Shown one piece after another: positions 16,793-27,406 of a stretch of 64,000 nt of DNA. The stretch's first letter is position 1, and every line of letters begins with the position of its first letter. The position numbers and the translations under genes are program-made. The stretch is taken from positions 992,001 through 1,056,000 of the forward strand of contig OZ245040.1 of assembly GCA_965224195.1 (NCBI GenBank). The letters run 5' to 3'. The notes under the pieces were generated by a model. That model did no database searches. It saw only the letters and a list, made by a program, of their open reading frames with translations, and was not told the origin of the DNA. The stretch comes from Nitrosopumilus sp. Lineage in GTDB: Archaea > Thermoproteota > Nitrososphaeria > Nitrososphaerales > Nitrosopumilaceae.

Positions 16793-17788
16793 GTGCAATT
16801 GCAAAATTCAAATAAAATACTTCAGTTAATTGGAATTCCATTTAGCGCATCACTTTCAGTAGTTTTTGGTTTACTTTTGGTTTCATTCCCAATTGGAATT
16901 CATATAGTTTTTGAAACTGATGTTGGAGGTGATATTAATTTTGAATATCCTTTAACTCACTTGGATATTTTTGATGGCACCGATTTTTACAAATCTCCTC
17001 TTGATGTTAGTATAGGTGATGCATTTGTTGTGCTATGGATATTCTATCTTGTTCTTTTTGTAATTGCTATTCTTGGACCTCGTAATGATTTTTTAAAAAC
17101 ACTTTCACTCATTATCTCTTTTGGGAAATACAATACACGCGTAAATTATATGATTGGAATAACTAAATGGTTTTCAATTTTAATTTTAATCTCAACTCTG
17201 ATAAATTATGTTCAAAAAGAAATTGGCCTTGAAATTGTCCCCCCTCTGGCTGAAAATGATTTAATTCAATTTTTTTATGTAAGCTTGGCTCCTATTCTTG
17301 AAGAATTTGGGTTTCGTCTTATTTTAATTGGCATTCCGTTGTTTGCTCTTTATTCTACAAAACCTTTTTTGAAATATTTTGTTAAATGTTTGTGGAGTCC
17401 TGCCAATTTGGATATCTATGATGCAAAAAAAGCATTTCTTTTAGTAGTTTTTGTAGGTGTTCTTTTTGGATTTGCACACATAGCATTTGGTGATTCTTGG
17501 AGTACTGGAAAGTTTGCCCAAGCTGCCGCAAGTGGAATAATTTTAGGTTGGGTGTATCTTCGATACGGTTTTGTTGTTTCTCTTTTGATTCATTGGGCTA
17601 CTAATTACTTTGTTTTTTCATATGCCAATTTTATTTCCCAGATAAATACAATTTCTATTGAAGATGCATTTTCACATTCTTTAATGTCTACTTTAGAAAT
17701 TTTACTGCTTGTTACGGGTATTTTCTCAATTAGTATTTTGTTTGTAAATAGATTTTGTTCTAAAAAAAATACTACCTTAGAGGTCTAG
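16793..17788 (+). CDS. CPBP (CAAX/Abi) intramembrane metalloprotease
   Basis: EEFGFR, FGFAH, HWATN; multi-TM. Confidence 0.9.
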   Translation: MQLQNSNKILQLIGIPFSASLSVVFGLLLVSFPIGIHIVFETDVGGDINFEYPLTHLDIFDGTDFYKSPLDVSIGDAFVVLWIFYLVLFVIAILGPRNDFLKTLSLIISFGKYNTRVNYMIGITKWFSILILISTLINYVQKEIGLEIVPPLAENDLIQFFYVSLAPILEEFGFRLILIGIPLFALYSTKPFLKYFVKCLWSPANLDIYDAKKAFLLVVFVGVLFGFAHIAFGDSWSTGKFAQAAASGIILGWVYLRYGFVVSLLIHWATNYFVFSYANFISQINTISIEDAFSHSLMSTLEILLLVTGIFSISILFVNRFCSKKNTTLEV

Positions 17789-18697
17789 TGCTACTTTCAA
17801 TCCTTTGTATCTATTTCTAATTGTTACTTCTGTAACTCCTGCAGCTTCTGCAACATCTCTTTGAGTTTTATTTTCACCATTTGTAACACATGCTACATAA
17901 AGTGCAGCTGCTGCTAACCCCATTGGATCTTTACCTGCTGATATTTTCTGTTCTTCAGCCGTTTGTAGAATTTTTGTTGCTTTTCTTTTTGTTTTTTCTG
18001 ATAACCCTGCTTTACTTGCAATTCTTGAAATGCATTTTACAGGATCAACTACTGGCATTTTCAAATTTAATTCTCTAAGTAATAATCTATAACATCTTGC
18101 AATATCTTTACGTTTAATGTTGCTTGCTTGACCAATATCTTTTAGAGTCCTTGGTGTTTCAGTATCCCTACATGCTGCATAGAGTGCAGATGCAATTAAT
18201 GCTGATATCGAACGTCCTCTTACTAGTCCTTTTTCTAAAGCTTTTCTGTAAATATAAGCTGCTTTCTCAACAACTGAATCTCCTATTACCAGTTTATCCT
18301 TTAATCTGTCTAATTCGCTAAACGCCTGTCTGAAGTTTCTGTCAACTGGTTCATGGACTTGACTTCTACTGTCCCATGTTCTTAATCTTTCAATAGTGCT
18401 TTTCATTGCTGCAGTTAATGGTTTGCCCGTTGCATCCCTGTTTTGGGGATTGATTACTGTGGCTAGCCCCATATCGTGCATTGCAAGTGATGTTGGAACT
18501 CCAGTTCTACTTTTGTTTTCACCCTCGTTTGAAAATGACCTCCATTCAGGACCTGATTCTTCTACTTTATCTGTAATAACAAATCCACATTTACCGCAAA
18601 AATTCTCGCCTGTATTGGCGTCTGTAACTATAGATCCCTTTCCACATCTGGGGCATTTGTCTTTTGGATTAGTTGTTTTAACCATTTTCTCTCTCAA
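17777..18697 (-). CDS. tfb: Transcription initiation factor IIB
   Basis: Zn ribbon CPRC/CGKCG, GPEWRSF, two cyclin repeats, GVTEVTIRNRY. Confidence 0.97.
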   Translation of the reverse strand: MREKMVKTTNPKDKCPRCGKGSIVTDANTGENFCGKCGFVITDKVEESGPEWRSFSNEGENKSRTGVPTSLAMHDMGLATVINPQNRDATGKPLTAAMKSTIERLRTWDSRSQVHEPVDRNFRQAFSELDRLKDKLVIGDSVVEKAAYIYRKALEKGLVRGRSISALIASALYAACRDTETPRTLKDIGQASNIKRKDIARCYRLLLRELNLKMPVVDPVKCISRIASKAGLSEKTKRKATKILQTAEEQKISAGKDPMGLAAAALYVACVTNGENKTQRDVAEAAGVTEVTIRNRYKGLKVALDL

Positions 18698-20085: not shown

Positions 20086-20454
20086 TTAATTATTTAATGG
20101 TGGATTAAGAATTGCTCTGACATAGTCTTCAAAAACTAACCTTTGTTGATCATCTACCATTCTTCTGTATTGAATTCTATATTTTAATGCATTTTGAGGA
20201 TAACTTGGATGGTGTTGAATTTTATTTTTTAGCGTAGAGTTACCATTACCGTTTATGTGTTGACTCATTCTTTCTGGAATGTTTCCTGATTCACCTACGT
20301 AAATTATTTCTCCTGTGTCTGGTCTGCTGAGAATGTATACTCCTGCAAACTGTTCTCTACCTGTCATTGTTTTCACTGTGATTGCAGCAGCTCCTAATAG
20401 TCGCTGCAATGCAATTTTGTGTTCTTTAATTCTACTACTATATTCTCTTTTCAA
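20086..20454 (-). CDS. Stand-alone GIY-YIG nuclease
   Basis: GVY...IYVGES.N...R..QH...E...PPLN. Confidence 0.85.
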   Translation of the reverse strand: MKREYSSRIKEHKIALQRLLGAAAITVKTMTGREQFAGVYILSRPDTGEIIYVGESGNIPERMSQHINGNGNSTLKNKIQHHPSYPQNALKYRIQYRRMVDDQQRLVFEDYVRAILNPPLNN

Positions 20455-20671
20455 AAAAACCGTATATAACTTTTCAAAGTCAGACTAGCCTCAATTTACC
20501 CCTCGACAGTTATCCGTATTAACTGTCACCAGTCAAGTCAGCAGAACCGAAAATGGTTCAGTTATAAAAAGCCCCGACACGCAACACGAATAAGATTATG
20601 GTTCAAGCTCCGCTAATGCAACAGAATCCAAAAATAGGAACTATTATTTACTGTAAAAATTAGAGTCTGAT

Positions 20672-23600
20672 GTGAACTGCCCTTATTTTTTTATCCTTGG
20701 TATAATTACATTGGCTCTAGTCGGCGGAGTCTCATCTGTGGGGGGGGGGTGGCATATGCTGACAATGCTGCTGATGCTGCCGGCGACATTCTAGTTGCAG
20801 ACTCGGGCAACCACCGCATCCAGGTGTTCAATCCTGACCATTCCTTCAAGTTTCAGTTTGGCAGCTCAGGCTCTGGTGACGGCCAGTTTAATACGCCCTG
20901 GAGCACGGCAATAGCACAAAACGGCGACATACTGGTAGTAGATCAGGGCAACCACCGCGTCCAGATATTCAACTCTGATGGCACATACAAGGCAAAGATT
21001 GGCAGCAGCACTTCTGGTGCTGCAGGCAGTAGTAGTGCCAACGGCGAGTTTGACAGCCCCCGAGGCATAACTATAACATCAGGCGGCGACATTCTAGTTG
21101 CAGACACGGGCAACAACCGCATCCAGGTGTTCAATCCTGACTATTCCTACAAGTCCAAGTTTGGCAGTCTGGGCAGCGGCAACGGCCAGCTCAACACTCC
21201 TTATGCTATAACGGTAGCAGCACCAAGCGGCGACATTCTAGTTGCAGACTCGGGCAACCACCGCATCCATATTTTTGACTCTAGCTATGCCTACAAGGCA
21301 AAGTTTGATAATAAAGTATCACAGTTTTTATCCGCACAAGGAGCCCATGCCATAGCAGTAGGGGCTAATGGCGATATCCTCGTTAATACGGGCTATGGTA
21401 GTATCGCTGTTTATGACTCTGCCACCTACGCCATAAAATCACTCCTTTCTAGTAACGCCGGCCAGGCCAGTAGCGGCATACTAGGCATAGCTGTCGCTCC
21501 AAACGGCGACATTCTCTTTACAGATACAGGAAGACATCACGTACAGGTATTCGGCTCTGACTATGTCTACAAGGCAGTTTTTGGCAGCTCAGGCTCTGGT
21601 GACGGCCAGTTTAACACCCCTTACGGCATAACAGTCGCCACTGCTGACAATACCCCGCCAAAATTTGATTCAGCAACACTAGATGAGGAAACCGGAGTTT
21701 TGGCAATAACTTTTAATGAGATAATTGCAAACGAGGGCTTGTCTACTGCCCCCTTTGATTTATCCAAACTGTTCATCAGTGAGACGGGAAGTGCCAGCGG
21801 CAGCAGCGGCGTTCAACTGAGCGGTGCCAGCATTGAAACTGTCGGCAACAGCACCTCCATAGAGATCAAGCTTACTGCACCTCAATTACAGTCAGTCATT
21901 GCATTGACTACTCCAGAACTGGACATCCTAGAAGCGGCAGTATTTGATGTTTCAGGTAATGAGATTCTCGCATCATATGACAATATCATTGCAGTAACTA
22001 ACAGTGTAGCACCAGTATCACCACCACTTGCTGCTCCAACTGGCCTTTCAGTGGCAGTATCTGGCACCACAGCTACCATCACTTGGACTGCACCTGCAAT
22101 ACCGGCCAATTCATTCTATGACATTAATTCCGTATCCTATATCGTGAATGTCACTGATACTGCTGCTGGCACCACCGTACCGTATACCGTACCTGCTGGC
22201 ACTACCGAGCATACGACGAACCTGATATTGGGCCAATTTTATGAGGTAACCGTAGAGGCAACAGCCTTGTTGTCAGATTCAACCGTTCTGTCCTCCCAAC
22301 CTACCGCAGCTGTATCCTTTGCTGTGTCTGAACCACCATCACTTGATGCGCCAACCAACCTTTCAGTGGCTGTATCTGGCACCACAGCTACTATTACTTG
22401 GACTGCACCTACAGTGGATACCAATGACTTCTATACCATTAATGATGTGAGTTATCAAGTGACTGTCGTTGATTCTGACGGTTCTGGTGCTGCATCAAGT
22501 GGTTCTATAACTGGCACCTCATATACGGCAACAGGCCTGACACCGGGTGAGTCATACAATGTATATGTAGTTGCATATGCTGTCGTTGGATCAAGCTATA
22601 CTGTGGAATCAGTTGAGGTATCTGCTTCCTTTAATATGCCAGCAGCAGCAGTAGTAGTAGTAGATAGCGGTGCAGGCACACCGCCATCACCAGATCAGAT
22701 TAAAGTACAAAATTTAGAGATAGAAAAAACAGGTAACAAAAGAGTCACTTTAACATGGAAAGCACCAGCAAATTCAGGTGATAAAGTATTAGATTATTAT
22801 AGTATCTCATACAATTGTCCTGCTACTCATGGTACAAAATATACTGAGATTCATACTGGCTTTACATCTGTGTCTATAGATAATTTGGATATAAGCGGCA
22901 TATGCAGGTTTCAAGTAACTCCAATATATCCTTCTGGTGGTGGTGTTAATAGTCTAATATTTCCTGGTGTTGATGGTGGTGTTACTGATAAAGGATTATC
23001 AGCTCCTCTAAAAGACATACCATTTACTGAAACACCAAAAGACATACGATTAACTGCTGCAATGGATGGCAGTGATGCAATCAAGGTGTCATGGCTTTCA
23101 ATATCCAGTGATATAGCTTTTTATGAACTGTCTTTGGGTGATGGTGATGACTCAAGAGGACTTGTGCCTTTAAAGGACTTTAAATATGAAGATGATAGGC
23201 CAACATCACAAATAATTAAAAACGTTGATCCTGGACGTACATATACTATTTACTTGGTTCTATACAATTATGAGGGCTCGGTACATTCTACTACTTTTAT
23301 TAAATATACAGTACCTGTTGACAGCATCCCGCCAAAATTAGAGTCAGCCGCACTGGATGAGGAAACAGGAGTCCTGACAATAACTTTTGATGAGATAATA
23401 GCAAACGAGGGCTTGTCTACTGCCCCCTTTGATTTATCCAAACTGTTCATCAGTGAGTCGGGAAGTGTTAATGGTACCGGCACGGCACTGAGCGGTGCCA
23501 GCATTGAAACTGTCGGCAACAGCACCTCCATAGAGATCAAGCTGACCGAATCCCAAAGACTGGCAGTCATTGCATTAACTGTCCCAGAACTGGACATCCT

Positions 23601-26001
23601 AGAAGCGGCAGTATTTGATGTTTCAGGCAATCAAATAGCTGCGGCACTAGACAATGCCATTGCAGTAACTAACAGTGTACAGCCGCCATCACTTGATGCG
23701 CCAACCAACCTTTTAGTCAATGTCATAAACGACACAGCCGCTGAAATTACCTGGACTGCACCTGCAATACCTGCCAATCCATTCTATGACATTAGTGACG
23801 TATCCTATCTCGTGAATGTTACTGATACTGCTGCTGGCACCACCGTACCGTATACCGTACCTGCTGGCACCACTACCACGCATACGGCAACAAACCTGAT
23901 ACCGGGCAAGTCCTATAATGCATCTGTAAAGGCAATAGTCTTGCTAGATTCAGGCGATGATTTGGAATCATCTGCCACAGCTGTATCCTTTGATATGCCG
24001 CCACCACTTGATGCGCCAACTAACATTTTAGTCAATGTCATAAACGGCACAGCCGCTGAAATCACTTGGACTGCACCTACAGTGGATGCCAATGAGTATT
24101 ATACCATTAATAATGTGAGTTATCAAGTAATTGTCCTTGATTCTATCAATGCTCCTACTGCATCAAGTGGTTCTATAACTGACACCTCATATACGGCAAC
24201 AGGCCTGACACCGGGTAAGTCATACAACGTATTTGTAGTTGCAGATGCCGCCGTTGGATTAACATATACTGTGCAATCATCTGCGGTATCTGCCCCCTTT
24301 GATATGCCTGCAGCAGATGCCCAAGCCGCAGCAGATGCCCAAGCCGCAGCAGATGCCCAAGCCGCAGCAGATGCCCAAGCCGCAGCAGATGCCCAAGCCG
24401 CGGCAGATGCCCAAGCCGCAGCAGATGCCCAAGCCGCAGCAGATGCCCAAGCCGCAGCAGATGCCCAAGCCGCAGCAGATGCCCAAGCCGCAGCAGATGC
24501 CCAAGCCGCAGCAGATGCCCAAGCCGCAGCAGATGCCCAAGCCGCAGCAGATGCCCAAGCCGCAGCAGATGCAGATGCCCAAGCCGCAGCAGATGCCCAA
24601 GCCGCGGCAGATGCTATAGATCCTGCACCAGTTGTTGTAACAGTAAATGCTGCAATGTATAACAGCACTGCAATCTTACTGACGTGGACCCAGCCGCCAT
24701 CATTAGAGGTAACTGGCTATGATTTATCATGGGTATCAGAGGATGCTAATGGTGACCCACATACTGGTGGTTACATATCACTTGACGGTGTAATAGGTGA
24801 TGTATTAGAATCCCACATATTTAATAAAGTTAATCCTGGAGAGACATACCACTTTACATTGGGTGTATTTTTCAATGTAGAAGGTCTTCCACAGCCTTTT
24901 GGCTCTTATGATGTGACATATACAGTACCAGATCCTAACGCAGATTCACTAAAAGATCACAAAAAGAAGAGGAGTACTGGCAGCTCAAATGAGCACTACA
25001 AAAAGCCAACCTTTGGACTGTCCCATCTGACAGAAAGTCTGATTGTAAATAATGGCATGTGCCTTAATGACAGCTGCGTTGACGTTGTATCATGGCACAC
25101 AAAATATCCGGAGGATAAAATATTAATAGACACCACAAACTATCTGCAGGCCAAAATGTACACTGATAAAACTTTGCGATATGTAGAGTTTTTCTTTGGA
25201 GTGCCAAGGCCTGGAGATGCATCTAATGCAGAGGTATTCGTAAAGGTAAGCCTGTCTAGAAACTATACCAGTCCAAATAACTATGATGTAACTGGCATCA
25301 GTACCATTGATGCAGAAGGTTTGCTGGATGGTACTGTAACTGCTGCAACCATACAGCCAAGCAAATGTCTTAGTGCAGATGCCGAACCAAACTGTCACAC
25401 TGTAACATTGCAGTTTGACTTCAACGAGGCGCCAATACACAGGGCATTTGCCATAGCGGCAGTTGACATGGACAGACGAGTCCATACAAATTACTTTAAT
25501 GACGGCTTTGTGGTACTTGGCGAATCACTAAATCCGGCAGACATGCACCATGTTGCAAACAGTGGCAAGTATCACTCTAATGAATATGCAAGTACGCACC
25601 AGCTGACACTGACCCAGACAGACAGGGCCAAGAACCTGTGGGCTGACCAGTGGGGATTTGCCTGGACACAAAATGACCATGGTACATGGCTCCAGCTGGA
25701 ACGAGATGAGTTTGTACGACACCAGGATGACATTAGCAGCGTAATGACCAGAACAAACTCTAACTATGACAGTATGATATCCCATGAGAAGGACCGCGCA
25801 TTGCAGCATGCAAAGGATATGTATGGCAGCATATATGACAAACCATCCTCTGATCTGGCAGAGCCTGTAACCATATGGATTGTGCCCTCACCAACAAGCA
25901 AGCTGCAAAACCCGGAGATACTTGATGCAATGAAACTGGAGGAAGCAAAGGCAATGAGCTATTTGCAGCATATGGTACGCGCAGACATGTCGCGCAAATG
26001 A
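20672..26001 (+). CDS. Giant surface protein (NHL repeats, FnIII domains, ADAQAA repeat); signal peptide out of frame at G10 tract 20740-20749
   Basis: ORF 20749-26001 has several GDILVADSGNHRIQVF NHL repeats and APTNL..ITWTAP FnIII modules; upstream GTG 20672 encodes a hydrophobic signal peptide in a different frame. Confidence 0.88.
20740..20749 (+). repeat. G10 homopolymer tract (candidate phase-variation switch)
   Basis: tctgtGGGGGGGGGGtggcatatgct; the only long G run I saw in this AT-rich window. Confidence 0.8.
24310..24613 (+). repeat. 18-bp coding tandem repeat, about 16 copies (GCAGATGCCCAAGCCGCA; ADAQAA)
   Basis: Near-perfect units; one 6-bp insertion and two GCG variants. Confidence 0.97.
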
Positions 26002-26337: not shown

Positions 26338-27406
26338 AGATGAGTTGTGCAATTAGTCCAATTTGAGCATAATCTCAACATTTTCTAATCATAAGATCCA
26401 AAGCTAAGGCTGAATTATTTTCAATTCATGTTTAATTGCACAAAACTGGCAAAAAAACCAAAGCAATTTCTGCCAATAGCAGGACTAACTGTTCCACAGT
26501 TTGATTCCCCATACAAGGAAACAAAGAAAAATTACAAAACTGCAGAACAAAAGGGACTGTCCAAAAACAGAGAAAGGGACATTGGTGCAGGACACAAGTT
26601 TGACTTGTCCTTCAAAGGCAGAATTCTAATGTTTTTCATGTACTACAGAATGTACACAGCATATGACATGCCAGGGATGACATTTGATTTGGACAAACCA
26701 AACGTAATGAGAAACATCGGATGTTTGGAGCCTGCAGTGAAGCAGTCCATTGTAATTGCTGCCAAAAAATATGCAGACTCAAAAGAGATTAACGGCATGC
26801 AGGAACTGCAGGAATTCTTTCCGGAATTAGTTGCAATCACTGATGGCACAGAACAGCCCATCCCAAGACCAAAAAACAAAAAGAAAAGAAAGGCACGCCA
26901 TTCAGGCAAAAAGAAAAAGCATGCAGTACAAAATCAAGTCGCCATAAATCCTGATGGGATAACAATCCACAAATCTGCACATTCGCCTGGCAGCCATCAT
27001 GATTACGGAATTTACAAACCAAGGCATCCAACATTGTCTGAAGAGCTGCTGCAGTCTTATGATCCTGGATGTTTGGGGATGGAAAAGGACTTTCCAGAAC
27101 AGGCAAGTGTTTTGCCATGCAAGAAAAAGAAAGGAAAAAAATTGACTGTTGCTCAAAAGGAGTGGAACAGGATGCAGTCAAAAATTAGAATAAAAGTTGG
27201 ACGTGTCATTGCACAAGTCAGGCAATTTCGGATAAATCGCGATGTGTTTAGAAACAAATTATGCAGATATGATGTGACAAGTGAAATTGTTTGTGGGACT
27301 GTCAGTTTCAAGATTAAATGGAAAGAAGAATTCATTGCAATTCCATAAAATTAAGAATTAAATGACAGAAAAGTTAGATTTTTGTTTGTAATTACGCAAC
27401 TCATCT
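26338..27406 (+). mobile_element. IS5-family (ISL2-like) insertion sequence, about 1069 bp
   Basis: 18-bp imperfect TIRs AGATGAGTTGTGCAATTA (26338-26355) and TAATTACGCAACTCATCT (27389-27406), 16/18 match, enclosing a transposase; flanks CTA and TTA are not a matching TSD. Confidence 0.9.
26428..27348 (+). pseudogene. DDE transposase (HTH_Tnp_4 plus DDE_Tnp_4 type); frame open but catalytic Glu appears mutated
   Basis: GAGHKFDL, DGTEQPIPRP, SGKKKKH, HD; DPGCLG in place of DxGYxG; RIKVGR in place of RIxVEH. Confidence 0.85.

Follow-up and report, generated by a model that had tools for sequence, protein, structure and literature searches.

Is a run of ten G residues inside a signal peptide a switch that turns a giant archaeal surface protein on and off, or is it a sequencing error, a scar in a dead gene or a feature with some other role? 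The question is raised by a 64,000-nucleotide (nt) stretch of Nitrosopumilus sp. DNA (GenBank assembly GCA_965224195.1, contig OZ245040.1, positions 992,001 to 1,056,000 of the forward strand), here called the window. In the window a short frame that starts at GTG 20672 and a frame of 1750 codons meet in different registers at a G10 homopolymer. A first-pass annotation, made from the letters of the window, proposed a contingency locus in a thaumarchaeon, now in the OFF state. The host is an ammonia-oxidising archaeon (archaeal AmoA, 386 bits). We favor the reading, with a probability of about 0.66, that G10 is a slipped-strand contingency switch in the signal-peptide coding part of one 1750-amino acid (aa) NHL/fibronectin-III gene, here OFF. 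The contingency proposal is supported by a run-less paralogue, bimodal run lengths, sense-strand placement of the runs, a split Type IIG restriction-modification gene and families with mixed frame states in relatives. The elements of the target locus are as follows, in window coordinates; a slash marks the predicted cleavage site.

20740-20749, + strand: G10 homopolymer with a t on each side; proposed slippage switch; in-frame lengths 8, 11 and 14.
20672..20794, + strand: short frame; GTG, signal-peptide n- and h-regions (NCPYFFILGIITLALVGGVSSV), the Gly codons of the run, a 14-codon out-of-frame tail and TAG at 20792-20794.
20749..26001, + strand: large frame for the mature protein; 1750 codons, begins at the VAYA/D cleavage motif; NHL repeats and five fn3 domains.
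20647..20661, + strand: promoter-proximal conserved block TTTACTGTAAAAATT, 10 nt 5' of the GTG; AT-rich and TATA-like.

The frame opened by GTG 20672 has 40 codons (VNCPYFFILGIITLALVGGVSSVGGG followed by WHMLTMLLMLPATF), and the 1750-codon frame reads GGGVAYADNAAD across the G10 run. Because ATG 20670 runs straight into TGA, GTG was taken as the usable start. The first-pass annotation had the short frame crossing G10 and stopping about 14 codons later, which is exact. It also held that G11 or G8 would restore a fusion of the two frames, and coordinate arithmetic agrees: one G added, or two removed, joins them into ...VAYA/DNAAD. The leader was read by eye. Its core is FFILGIITLALVGGV, followed by V-A-Y-A/D, and its n-region contains no basic residue. 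A signal peptide upstream of the giant frame with the run inside it, as first annotated, is predicted from this translation and from the identical leader of a paralogue described below.

The tract is longer than composition predicts, and it is placed where a change of one unit switches the frame. It is the sole G/C run of at least 10 nt in the window, which confirms the earlier remark that no other long G tract occurs in these 64 kb, and each of 100 dinucleotide-preserving shuffles gave 0 matches. GGG is the rarest Gly codon of the genome, accounting for 8.1% of the 23126 Gly codons in frames of at least 300 aa. The run is therefore a DNA-level feature and not a protein requirement.

The large frame contains no further stop or shift. 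Pfam identified NHL (2.5e-40, 135 bits, cut-off 20) and fn3 (4.9e-48, 161.7 bits, cut-off 25) in five stretches each, in line with the first description of a 1750-aa NHL/FnIII protein. By these cut-offs the product is an NHL-repeat/fibronectin-III protein of extracellular type, with a putative role as an adhesin. No hydrophobic C-terminal anchor was seen in the 1750 aa. The GC content of the large frame is 0.39-0.52 versus ~0.30 in its flanks. An internal repeat of the giant gene lies at 24403-24572. Contigs from public sequencing data skip and go back many times between 21640 and 22700, and their depths add up to a very high value there; this suggests repeats that the paralogues have in common.

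That the two frames belong together was established with the other copies in the same genome (G000; 2.07 Mb, 2 contigs, 33.6% GC, 99.85% complete). At G000:C1:799825 an identical promoter block and signal peptide, with no run, lead in frame into a 4180-aa protein. The paralogue peptide continues as ...VSSVAYADNADAAGDILVADSGNHRIQVF; the read-through is ...VGGVSSVAYADNADAAGDILVADSGNHRIQVF. Relative to the paralogue, the target has an 11-nt insertion with GTGG on both its sides. Since the run-less paralogue reads as one frame, the two frames of the target are a single split gene. A protein search with the first 400 aa of the paralogue returned only generic NHL propellers, at no more than 46% identity.

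The exact 15-mer TTTACTGTAAAAATT occurs four times in G000, at the target, 799800, 1362468 and 1399962(-), each time just 5' of a homologous signal-peptide start. From this position and its composition, a role in the promoter is probable. In the copy at 1399962(-) an ATG replaces the GTG of the target. This copy has a G10 of its own at 1399814, ten residues past the cleavage site and out of frame. The copies of the module at 799800 and 1362468 have no run. Similar tracts in paralogous adhesin genes, which the first-pass annotation had suggested looking for, are found in one copy, at another place, and lacking in two. As the run sits elsewhere in one copy and is absent from two others, runs have been gained independently in one gene family.

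The G10 of the target is part of a genome-wide set. G000 contains 403 G/C runs of 5 nt, 48 of 6, 17 of 7, 4 of 8, 0 of 9 and 14 of 10-14. Run lengths are bimodal. From base composition (G = C = 0.168) ~0.06 runs of at least 10 nt are expected in 2.07 Mb; 14 were observed. Read in the sense of the adjacent gene, all of them (14/14) are poly-G; they fall into three arrangements.

Intragenic long runs (5): 170249, target, 1399814 and 1673851, in the 5' part of the frame; 1501840, mid-gene.
Upstream runs, with distance to the first in-frame start: 1619091, 9 nt; 529829 and 1056970, 12 nt; 1718514, 36 nt.
Upstream runs of a five-copy FG-GAP family: 3336, 666773, 1423668, 1611514 and 1732857, ~110 nt before the start.

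Sense poly-G of at least 10 nt lies within -150..+450 nt of the 5' end in 13/702 frames of at least 300 aa, and antisense poly-G in 0. Among frames of at least 1500 aa the proportion is 9/13. The four run-less frames of that size comprise two antisense shadows in run-bearing genes, the paralogue of the target and one frame abutting a contig end. The latter (1731 aa) and the run-bearing FG-GAP frame at the contig start were considered as parts of one gene, which was rejected when the joined ends stayed in different frames. The genes associated with runs are of secreted type and mostly giant in 13/14 cases, and the 14th encodes a Type IIG restriction-methylase, so that the set is concentrated in surface and restriction-modification genes. 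FG-GAP, fn3, NHL or SGL-propeller repeats were found by Pfam in 10/13 surface-type products, and three had no clear Pfam match. The long runs cover almost all giant surface-type proteins of G000.

Several further features of these loci were recorded. A G11 at G000:C1:1056970-1056980, 970 nt past the right end of the window, precedes by 12 nt the GTG of an 857-aa fn3/SGL-propeller protein; a paralogue of this protein (1718 aa) has the same G11 at 529829-529839, in surroundings that are 93% identical. In the FG-GAP family, for example at 1423588-1423840 (-), low-complexity DNA of the form (GA)n or (GT/GC)n comes after the run. Four copies of this family have a hydrophobic mini-frame (MIKYVCFLVN...) that starts at an ATG and crosses the run; in the fifth copy this ATG is ATA. 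When the run is G12, a TAG closes the mini-frame 2 nt short of the main ATG, and the mini-frame may be a leader that depends on the run. At 3 and 170 kb the genes with a run are encoded on the - strand, between 530 and 1057 kb on the + strand, and between 1400 and 1733 kb on the - strand again. The best Cdc6/Orc1 match is at 195 kb, and all 14 genes are oriented away from it; a second, weaker one is at 1112 kb. In the related genome G017 the strand varies with position in a similar way. The cumulative GC skew of G000 gave no origin or terminus signal, and contig C2 is unrelated.

The one run-bearing gene of another kind, at G000:C1:1500241-1503359 (-), is split by a G11 (1501840) into frames of 518 and 552 aa. 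The split separates methylase motif I (DPACGSGAFL) from the NIYGVD motif. The upstream half matches MmeI_Mtase/N6_Mtase and the downstream half Eco57I (117.7 bits) plus N6_Mtase. Over their whole length both halves align colinearly to a G101 homologue that is intact and measures at least 1028 aa. No G/C run of at least 6 nt is present in the G101 homologue or in six other homologous loci. By its predicted methylase domains and this colinearity the companion locus is assigned to the Type IIG restriction-modification enzymes of the MmeI/Eco57I kind; no nuclease domain was identified in it.

The frame states of the intragenic runs of at least 8 nt in G000 were compared. One of six is in frame (1673851, G11), and the others would need changes of differing sign.

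Target, G10: 8 or 11 needed.
113407, G8: 9 needed.
170249, G13: 12 needed.
1399814, G10: 9 or 12 needed.
1501840, G11: 9 or 12 needed.

Reliability of the assembly at homopolymers was gauged with A/T runs of at least 8 nt. Of these, 263/517 are inside intact long frames and no more than 10/517 are at possible frame splits. By these counts the assembly is not generally poor at homopolymers. Four (X1-X4) of ten public sequencing runs were also compared over 4 kb, as pre-assembled contigs. An X1 contig of depth 245.8 spans 20738-20772 with no indel listed, equivalent to G10; the depth of the unique flank is 372.3. One X2 contig looks like an in-frame allele, lacking 11 + 3 nt and differing at 20664, 20667 and 20701, but it is the paralogue at 799.8 kb and was rejected. 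In X2 and X4 no listed contig covers the target's own run. The states recorded at the target site are no run (paralogue), G7 (X3 contig) and G10. No MutS_V domain was found in the 99.85%-complete G000, and NucS_C has two matches (57 and 32 bits).

Relatives have the same kind of tract. Of 24 other genomes of the genus, 13 have runs of G10 or longer, with many such runs in ~7 near-complete ones; of 16 genomes from other families of the order, 2 have them. We examined 44 runs in G017, G009 and G018, with 3 kb of sequence per locus. Runs precede frames of at least 990 aa that extend past the end of this 3 kb in 8/24 cases in G017, 9/13 in G009 and 0/7 in G018. Other runs of G017 adjoin two N6_N4 DNA methylases, a GmrSD restriction enzyme, a sulfotransferase and an integrase, and two runs of G009 are inside transposase genes. 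G052 has 21 runs of at least 9 nt. A symmetric test on 20 of these looked for a frame that begins close to the run and is still open at the end of the flank: 12/20 loci have one in the G sense and 1/20 in the C sense.

Ten paralogues in G052 consist of a hydrophobic leader, (G)11-12, 0-6 GGT/TGG units, VAYA/ and the mature protein. As translated, the N-terminus predicted for this family is of the same design as that of the target. By eye, from three-frame translations, 7 of the ten are in frame and 3 are out. Locus L105 (G11, in frame) and locus L107 (G12, out) differ by 1 mismatch in the 600 nt upstream (99.8% identity) and are 97.7% identical over the 600 nt downstream. G017 has a family of six with G11-G14, 4 in frame and 2 out, and a family of three with G11, all in frame. 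Its loci L058 (G12, out) and L060 (G11, in) have flanks that are 97.8% and 96.3% identical. As assembled, then, tract length differs between near-identical copies in both relatives. None of the 20 G052 run loci is orthologous to a run locus of G000 (0/20), and the run-bearing upstream region of the FG-GAP family was found only in G000, in 5 copies.

Other arrangements of simple repeats were seen in the relatives. Long trinucleotide repeats (V, S or stop by frame) lie ~150-240 nt upstream of the runs at L058, L060 and L061 of G017, and are a second kind of simple repeat. Paired poly-G runs (G10-G13), 68-143 nt apart, stand upstream of the same giant fn3/Ig-like gene at L068, L075 and L076 of G009. 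In G015, an assembly of 160 contigs, several runs are ~30-260 nt from a contig start (C55, C83, C112 and others); short-read assemblies may tend to break at poly-G runs.

A number of results weigh against a working switch at this locus. The ratio of nonsynonymous to synonymous substitution rates (dN/dS) between target and paralogue is 0.69-0.86, a range in which purifying selection on the target is not demonstrated. Five of the six intragenic runs of G000 are out of frame, which also fits decay or homopolymer miscalls. X1 may be the source of the assembly itself, and its G10 is then not independent, and the X3 contig, which is from another organism and study and closer to the paralogue, has a G7 that is out of frame in the same register as G10. 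Variation of length in one population was not observed in the pre-assembled contigs, which drop minority variants. Eleven of the 24 other genomes of the genus have no run of G10 or longer, and the seven runs examined in G018 show no clear association. When 120 other genomes of the genus were searched with the DNA of 20560-21000, no orthologue of the target site came up, only short upstream or NHL-repeat matches. Four pattern scans, two of metagenomes and two of genome collections, made with the flanks of the target or of the FG-GAP family, gave 0 hits. The collections used hold one genome per species.

These results have to be set against four other explanations. The true length might be in frame (G11), the OFF state being an error of assembly or polishing; the run could be a contingency tract even so. 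Several sequencing platforms have difficulty with long G runs, and a miscall would fit the 5/6 intragenic runs out of frame and the lower depth of X1 over the run (245.8) than in the unique flank (372.3). We consider it unlikely, since the X1 contig spans the run with no indel relative to the window, A/T runs of 8-11 nt are intact in 263 long frames with no more than 10 possible splits, the genome is 99.85% complete and the out-of-frame loci need corrections of differing sign. A little less likely again is a fixed pseudogene, that is, a decaying duplicate of the 4180-aa paralogue that was killed by the 11-nt insertion and no longer switches. The paralogue is intact without a run, the dN/dS of 0.69-0.86 is relaxed, a transposase gene and a GIY-YIG gene flank the locus, and X3 with its G7 is out of frame too. 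Decay does not readily account for a 1750-codon frame that is free of other stops and shifts, for a lesion of the very kind of run that precedes nearly every giant gene, always on the sense strand and at the 5' end, or for relatives that keep a run at the same position of the signal peptide, mostly in in-frame copies.

The runs might also serve some other purpose on the sense strand (promoter or leader architecture, chromatin exclusion, replication-linked effects), with frame disruption as an incidental result. The non-intragenic runs sit upstream of the start codon, outside coding sequence; 14/14 runs are on the sense strand and 14/14 genes are oriented away from the best match to Cdc6/Orc1, near 195 kb. 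Yet upstream homopolymers are classical sites of phase variation in bacteria, no known RNA family matches at the target, and at six loci of G000 (five long runs plus the G8 at 113407), as well as in the G017 and G052 families, the run is inside coding sequence where its length sets the frame. We regard such a role as improbable. Programmed recoding is very improbable. It would make the full protein from G10 by a -1 ribosomal frameshift or by slippage of RNA polymerase, and it has in its favor that a G run lets tRNA-Gly re-pair in the -1 frame and that G10 here and G7 in X3 are in the same register. The 101 nt downstream have an unremarkable fold (z = +0.85), equalled or bettered by 155/200 shuffles. 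Rfam gave no match, the run-less paralogue reads through unshifted, and family members in relatives are mostly plainly in frame. Other out-of-frame loci need shifts of opposite sign, which argues against a single programmed frameshift. A programmed -1 site was accordingly rejected as a candidate, there being no stimulatory fold and no conservation of the shift in the paralogue.

If G10 is a contingency switch, translation would start at GTG 20672. With 8, 11 or 14 G the product would be MNCPYFF...VSSV-(G)n-VAYA/DNAAD..., a substrate for Sec export, and signal peptidase would remove the leader together with the variable glycines. As these are cleaved off with the leader, all in-frame variants would yield an identical mature protein. 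With 10 G, translation would stop after 40 codons and the 1750-codon frame would be left with no export signal, the OFF state. Slippage during replication, with no MutS to correct it, would change the length by one base at a time, frequently and reversibly. MutS-type repair is not known from Campylobacter and Helicobacter, where its lack goes with unstable homopolymers. The locus would be one of a genome-wide repertoire of 14 runs that also gates a restriction enzyme, and would serve bet-hedging. The selective agent would most plausibly be viruses or attachment.

We lean, by a modest degree of belief, towards a broader view in which the lineage has a phasome. Each genome would hold ~14-25 sense poly-G tracts that randomly switch nearly every giant surface protein, together with restriction-modification and other defence or surface-modifying enzymes, from signal peptides and from TATA/TFB-type promoter or leader regions. 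Bet-hedging against viruses, and not against the immune system of a host, would be the likely driver, and this would be the first worked-out case of simple-repeat phase variation in Archaea, in a globally important chemolithoautotroph that is free-living.

Two neighbours of the target locus are given for context.

20086..20454, - strand: small GIY-YIG domain protein, upstream neighbour (Pfam GIY-YIG, 1.1e-06).
26428..27348, + strand: DDE_Tnp_4 transposase, downstream neighbour (Pfam DDE_Tnp_4, 2e-20).

The transposase next door suggests that the region around the giant gene is mobile or variable. At 17777-18697 (-), 2 kb upstream of the giant gene, is a gene for a TFIIB/TFB transcription factor (TFIIB, 2.1e-44). 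Upstream of the promoter block, a ~60-nt stretch at 20566-20626 has copies of 85-91% identity in G017 (5) and G009 (5) and at G000:C1:1545959, and may be a small dispersed intergenic element.

In host-adapted bacteria, phase variation through slipping repeats is standard textbook matter, and immune evasion is the usual explanation. In the literature we found no description of poly-G phase variation in ammonia-oxidising or other archaea. In the portions of two papers available to us, homopolymer statistics for a few archaeal genomes are given in pooled form only (PMC2831843; PMC3315296), and in the part of a preprint available to us (10.1101/2025.10.21.683753) the archaeal reference is a 1987 FEBS Letters paper on simple repeats. 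If our reading is right, slippage phase variation exists in Archaea and in free-living nitrifiers, and viruses or attachment are pointed to as the selective force. Clonal cultures of these archaea would be mixtures of surface types. Genes annotated as frameshifted or as lacking a signal peptide would be explained, and so perhaps would breaks of short-read assemblies at runs, as in G015.

Three bacterial systems invite comparison. In Neisseria meningitidis, porA and opc have homopolymers in the promoter spacer. Like these, the upstream runs of G000 would be near the promoter and could set the level of expression by their length; unlike them, the target run is intragenic, and the bacterial -35/-10 spacing has no direct archaeal equivalent. 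The Neisseria opa genes have a CTCTT repeat inside the region coding for the signal peptide. There, as predicted for the target, the repeat is in a cleaved leader, so that every variant in frame yields one and the same mature protein and the others yield none, and the members of a multigene family are in different phases, as in the G052 and G017 families. The opa repeat is a pentanucleotide in the gene of a ~30 kDa bacterial outer-membrane protein, whereas here a homopolymer precedes a 1750-aa archaeal protein.

The third system is the poly-G phasome of Campylobacter jejuni, which includes a phase-variable Type IIG restriction-modification gene, cj0031. Repeat-driven phase variation in this species is treated in the consulted parts of PMC8437040 and PMC13317227. 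The organism here is a free-living archaeal ammonia oxidiser instead of a host-adapted bacterium. Giant repeat proteins make up most of the targets, in place of glycan-modifying enzymes; runs on the promoter side would have to work on a promoter of TATA/TFB type; the sense strand carries the G in 14 of 14 runs; and switching is predicted from sequence. The likenesses are extensive. Both genomes are AT-rich with discrete G/C runs of ~8-14 nt in the 5' coding part or just upstream, and MutS is not known from Campylobacter and was not found in G000. Both sets of runs are concentrated in surface-structure and restriction-modification genes, with ON and OFF states mixed in one genome.

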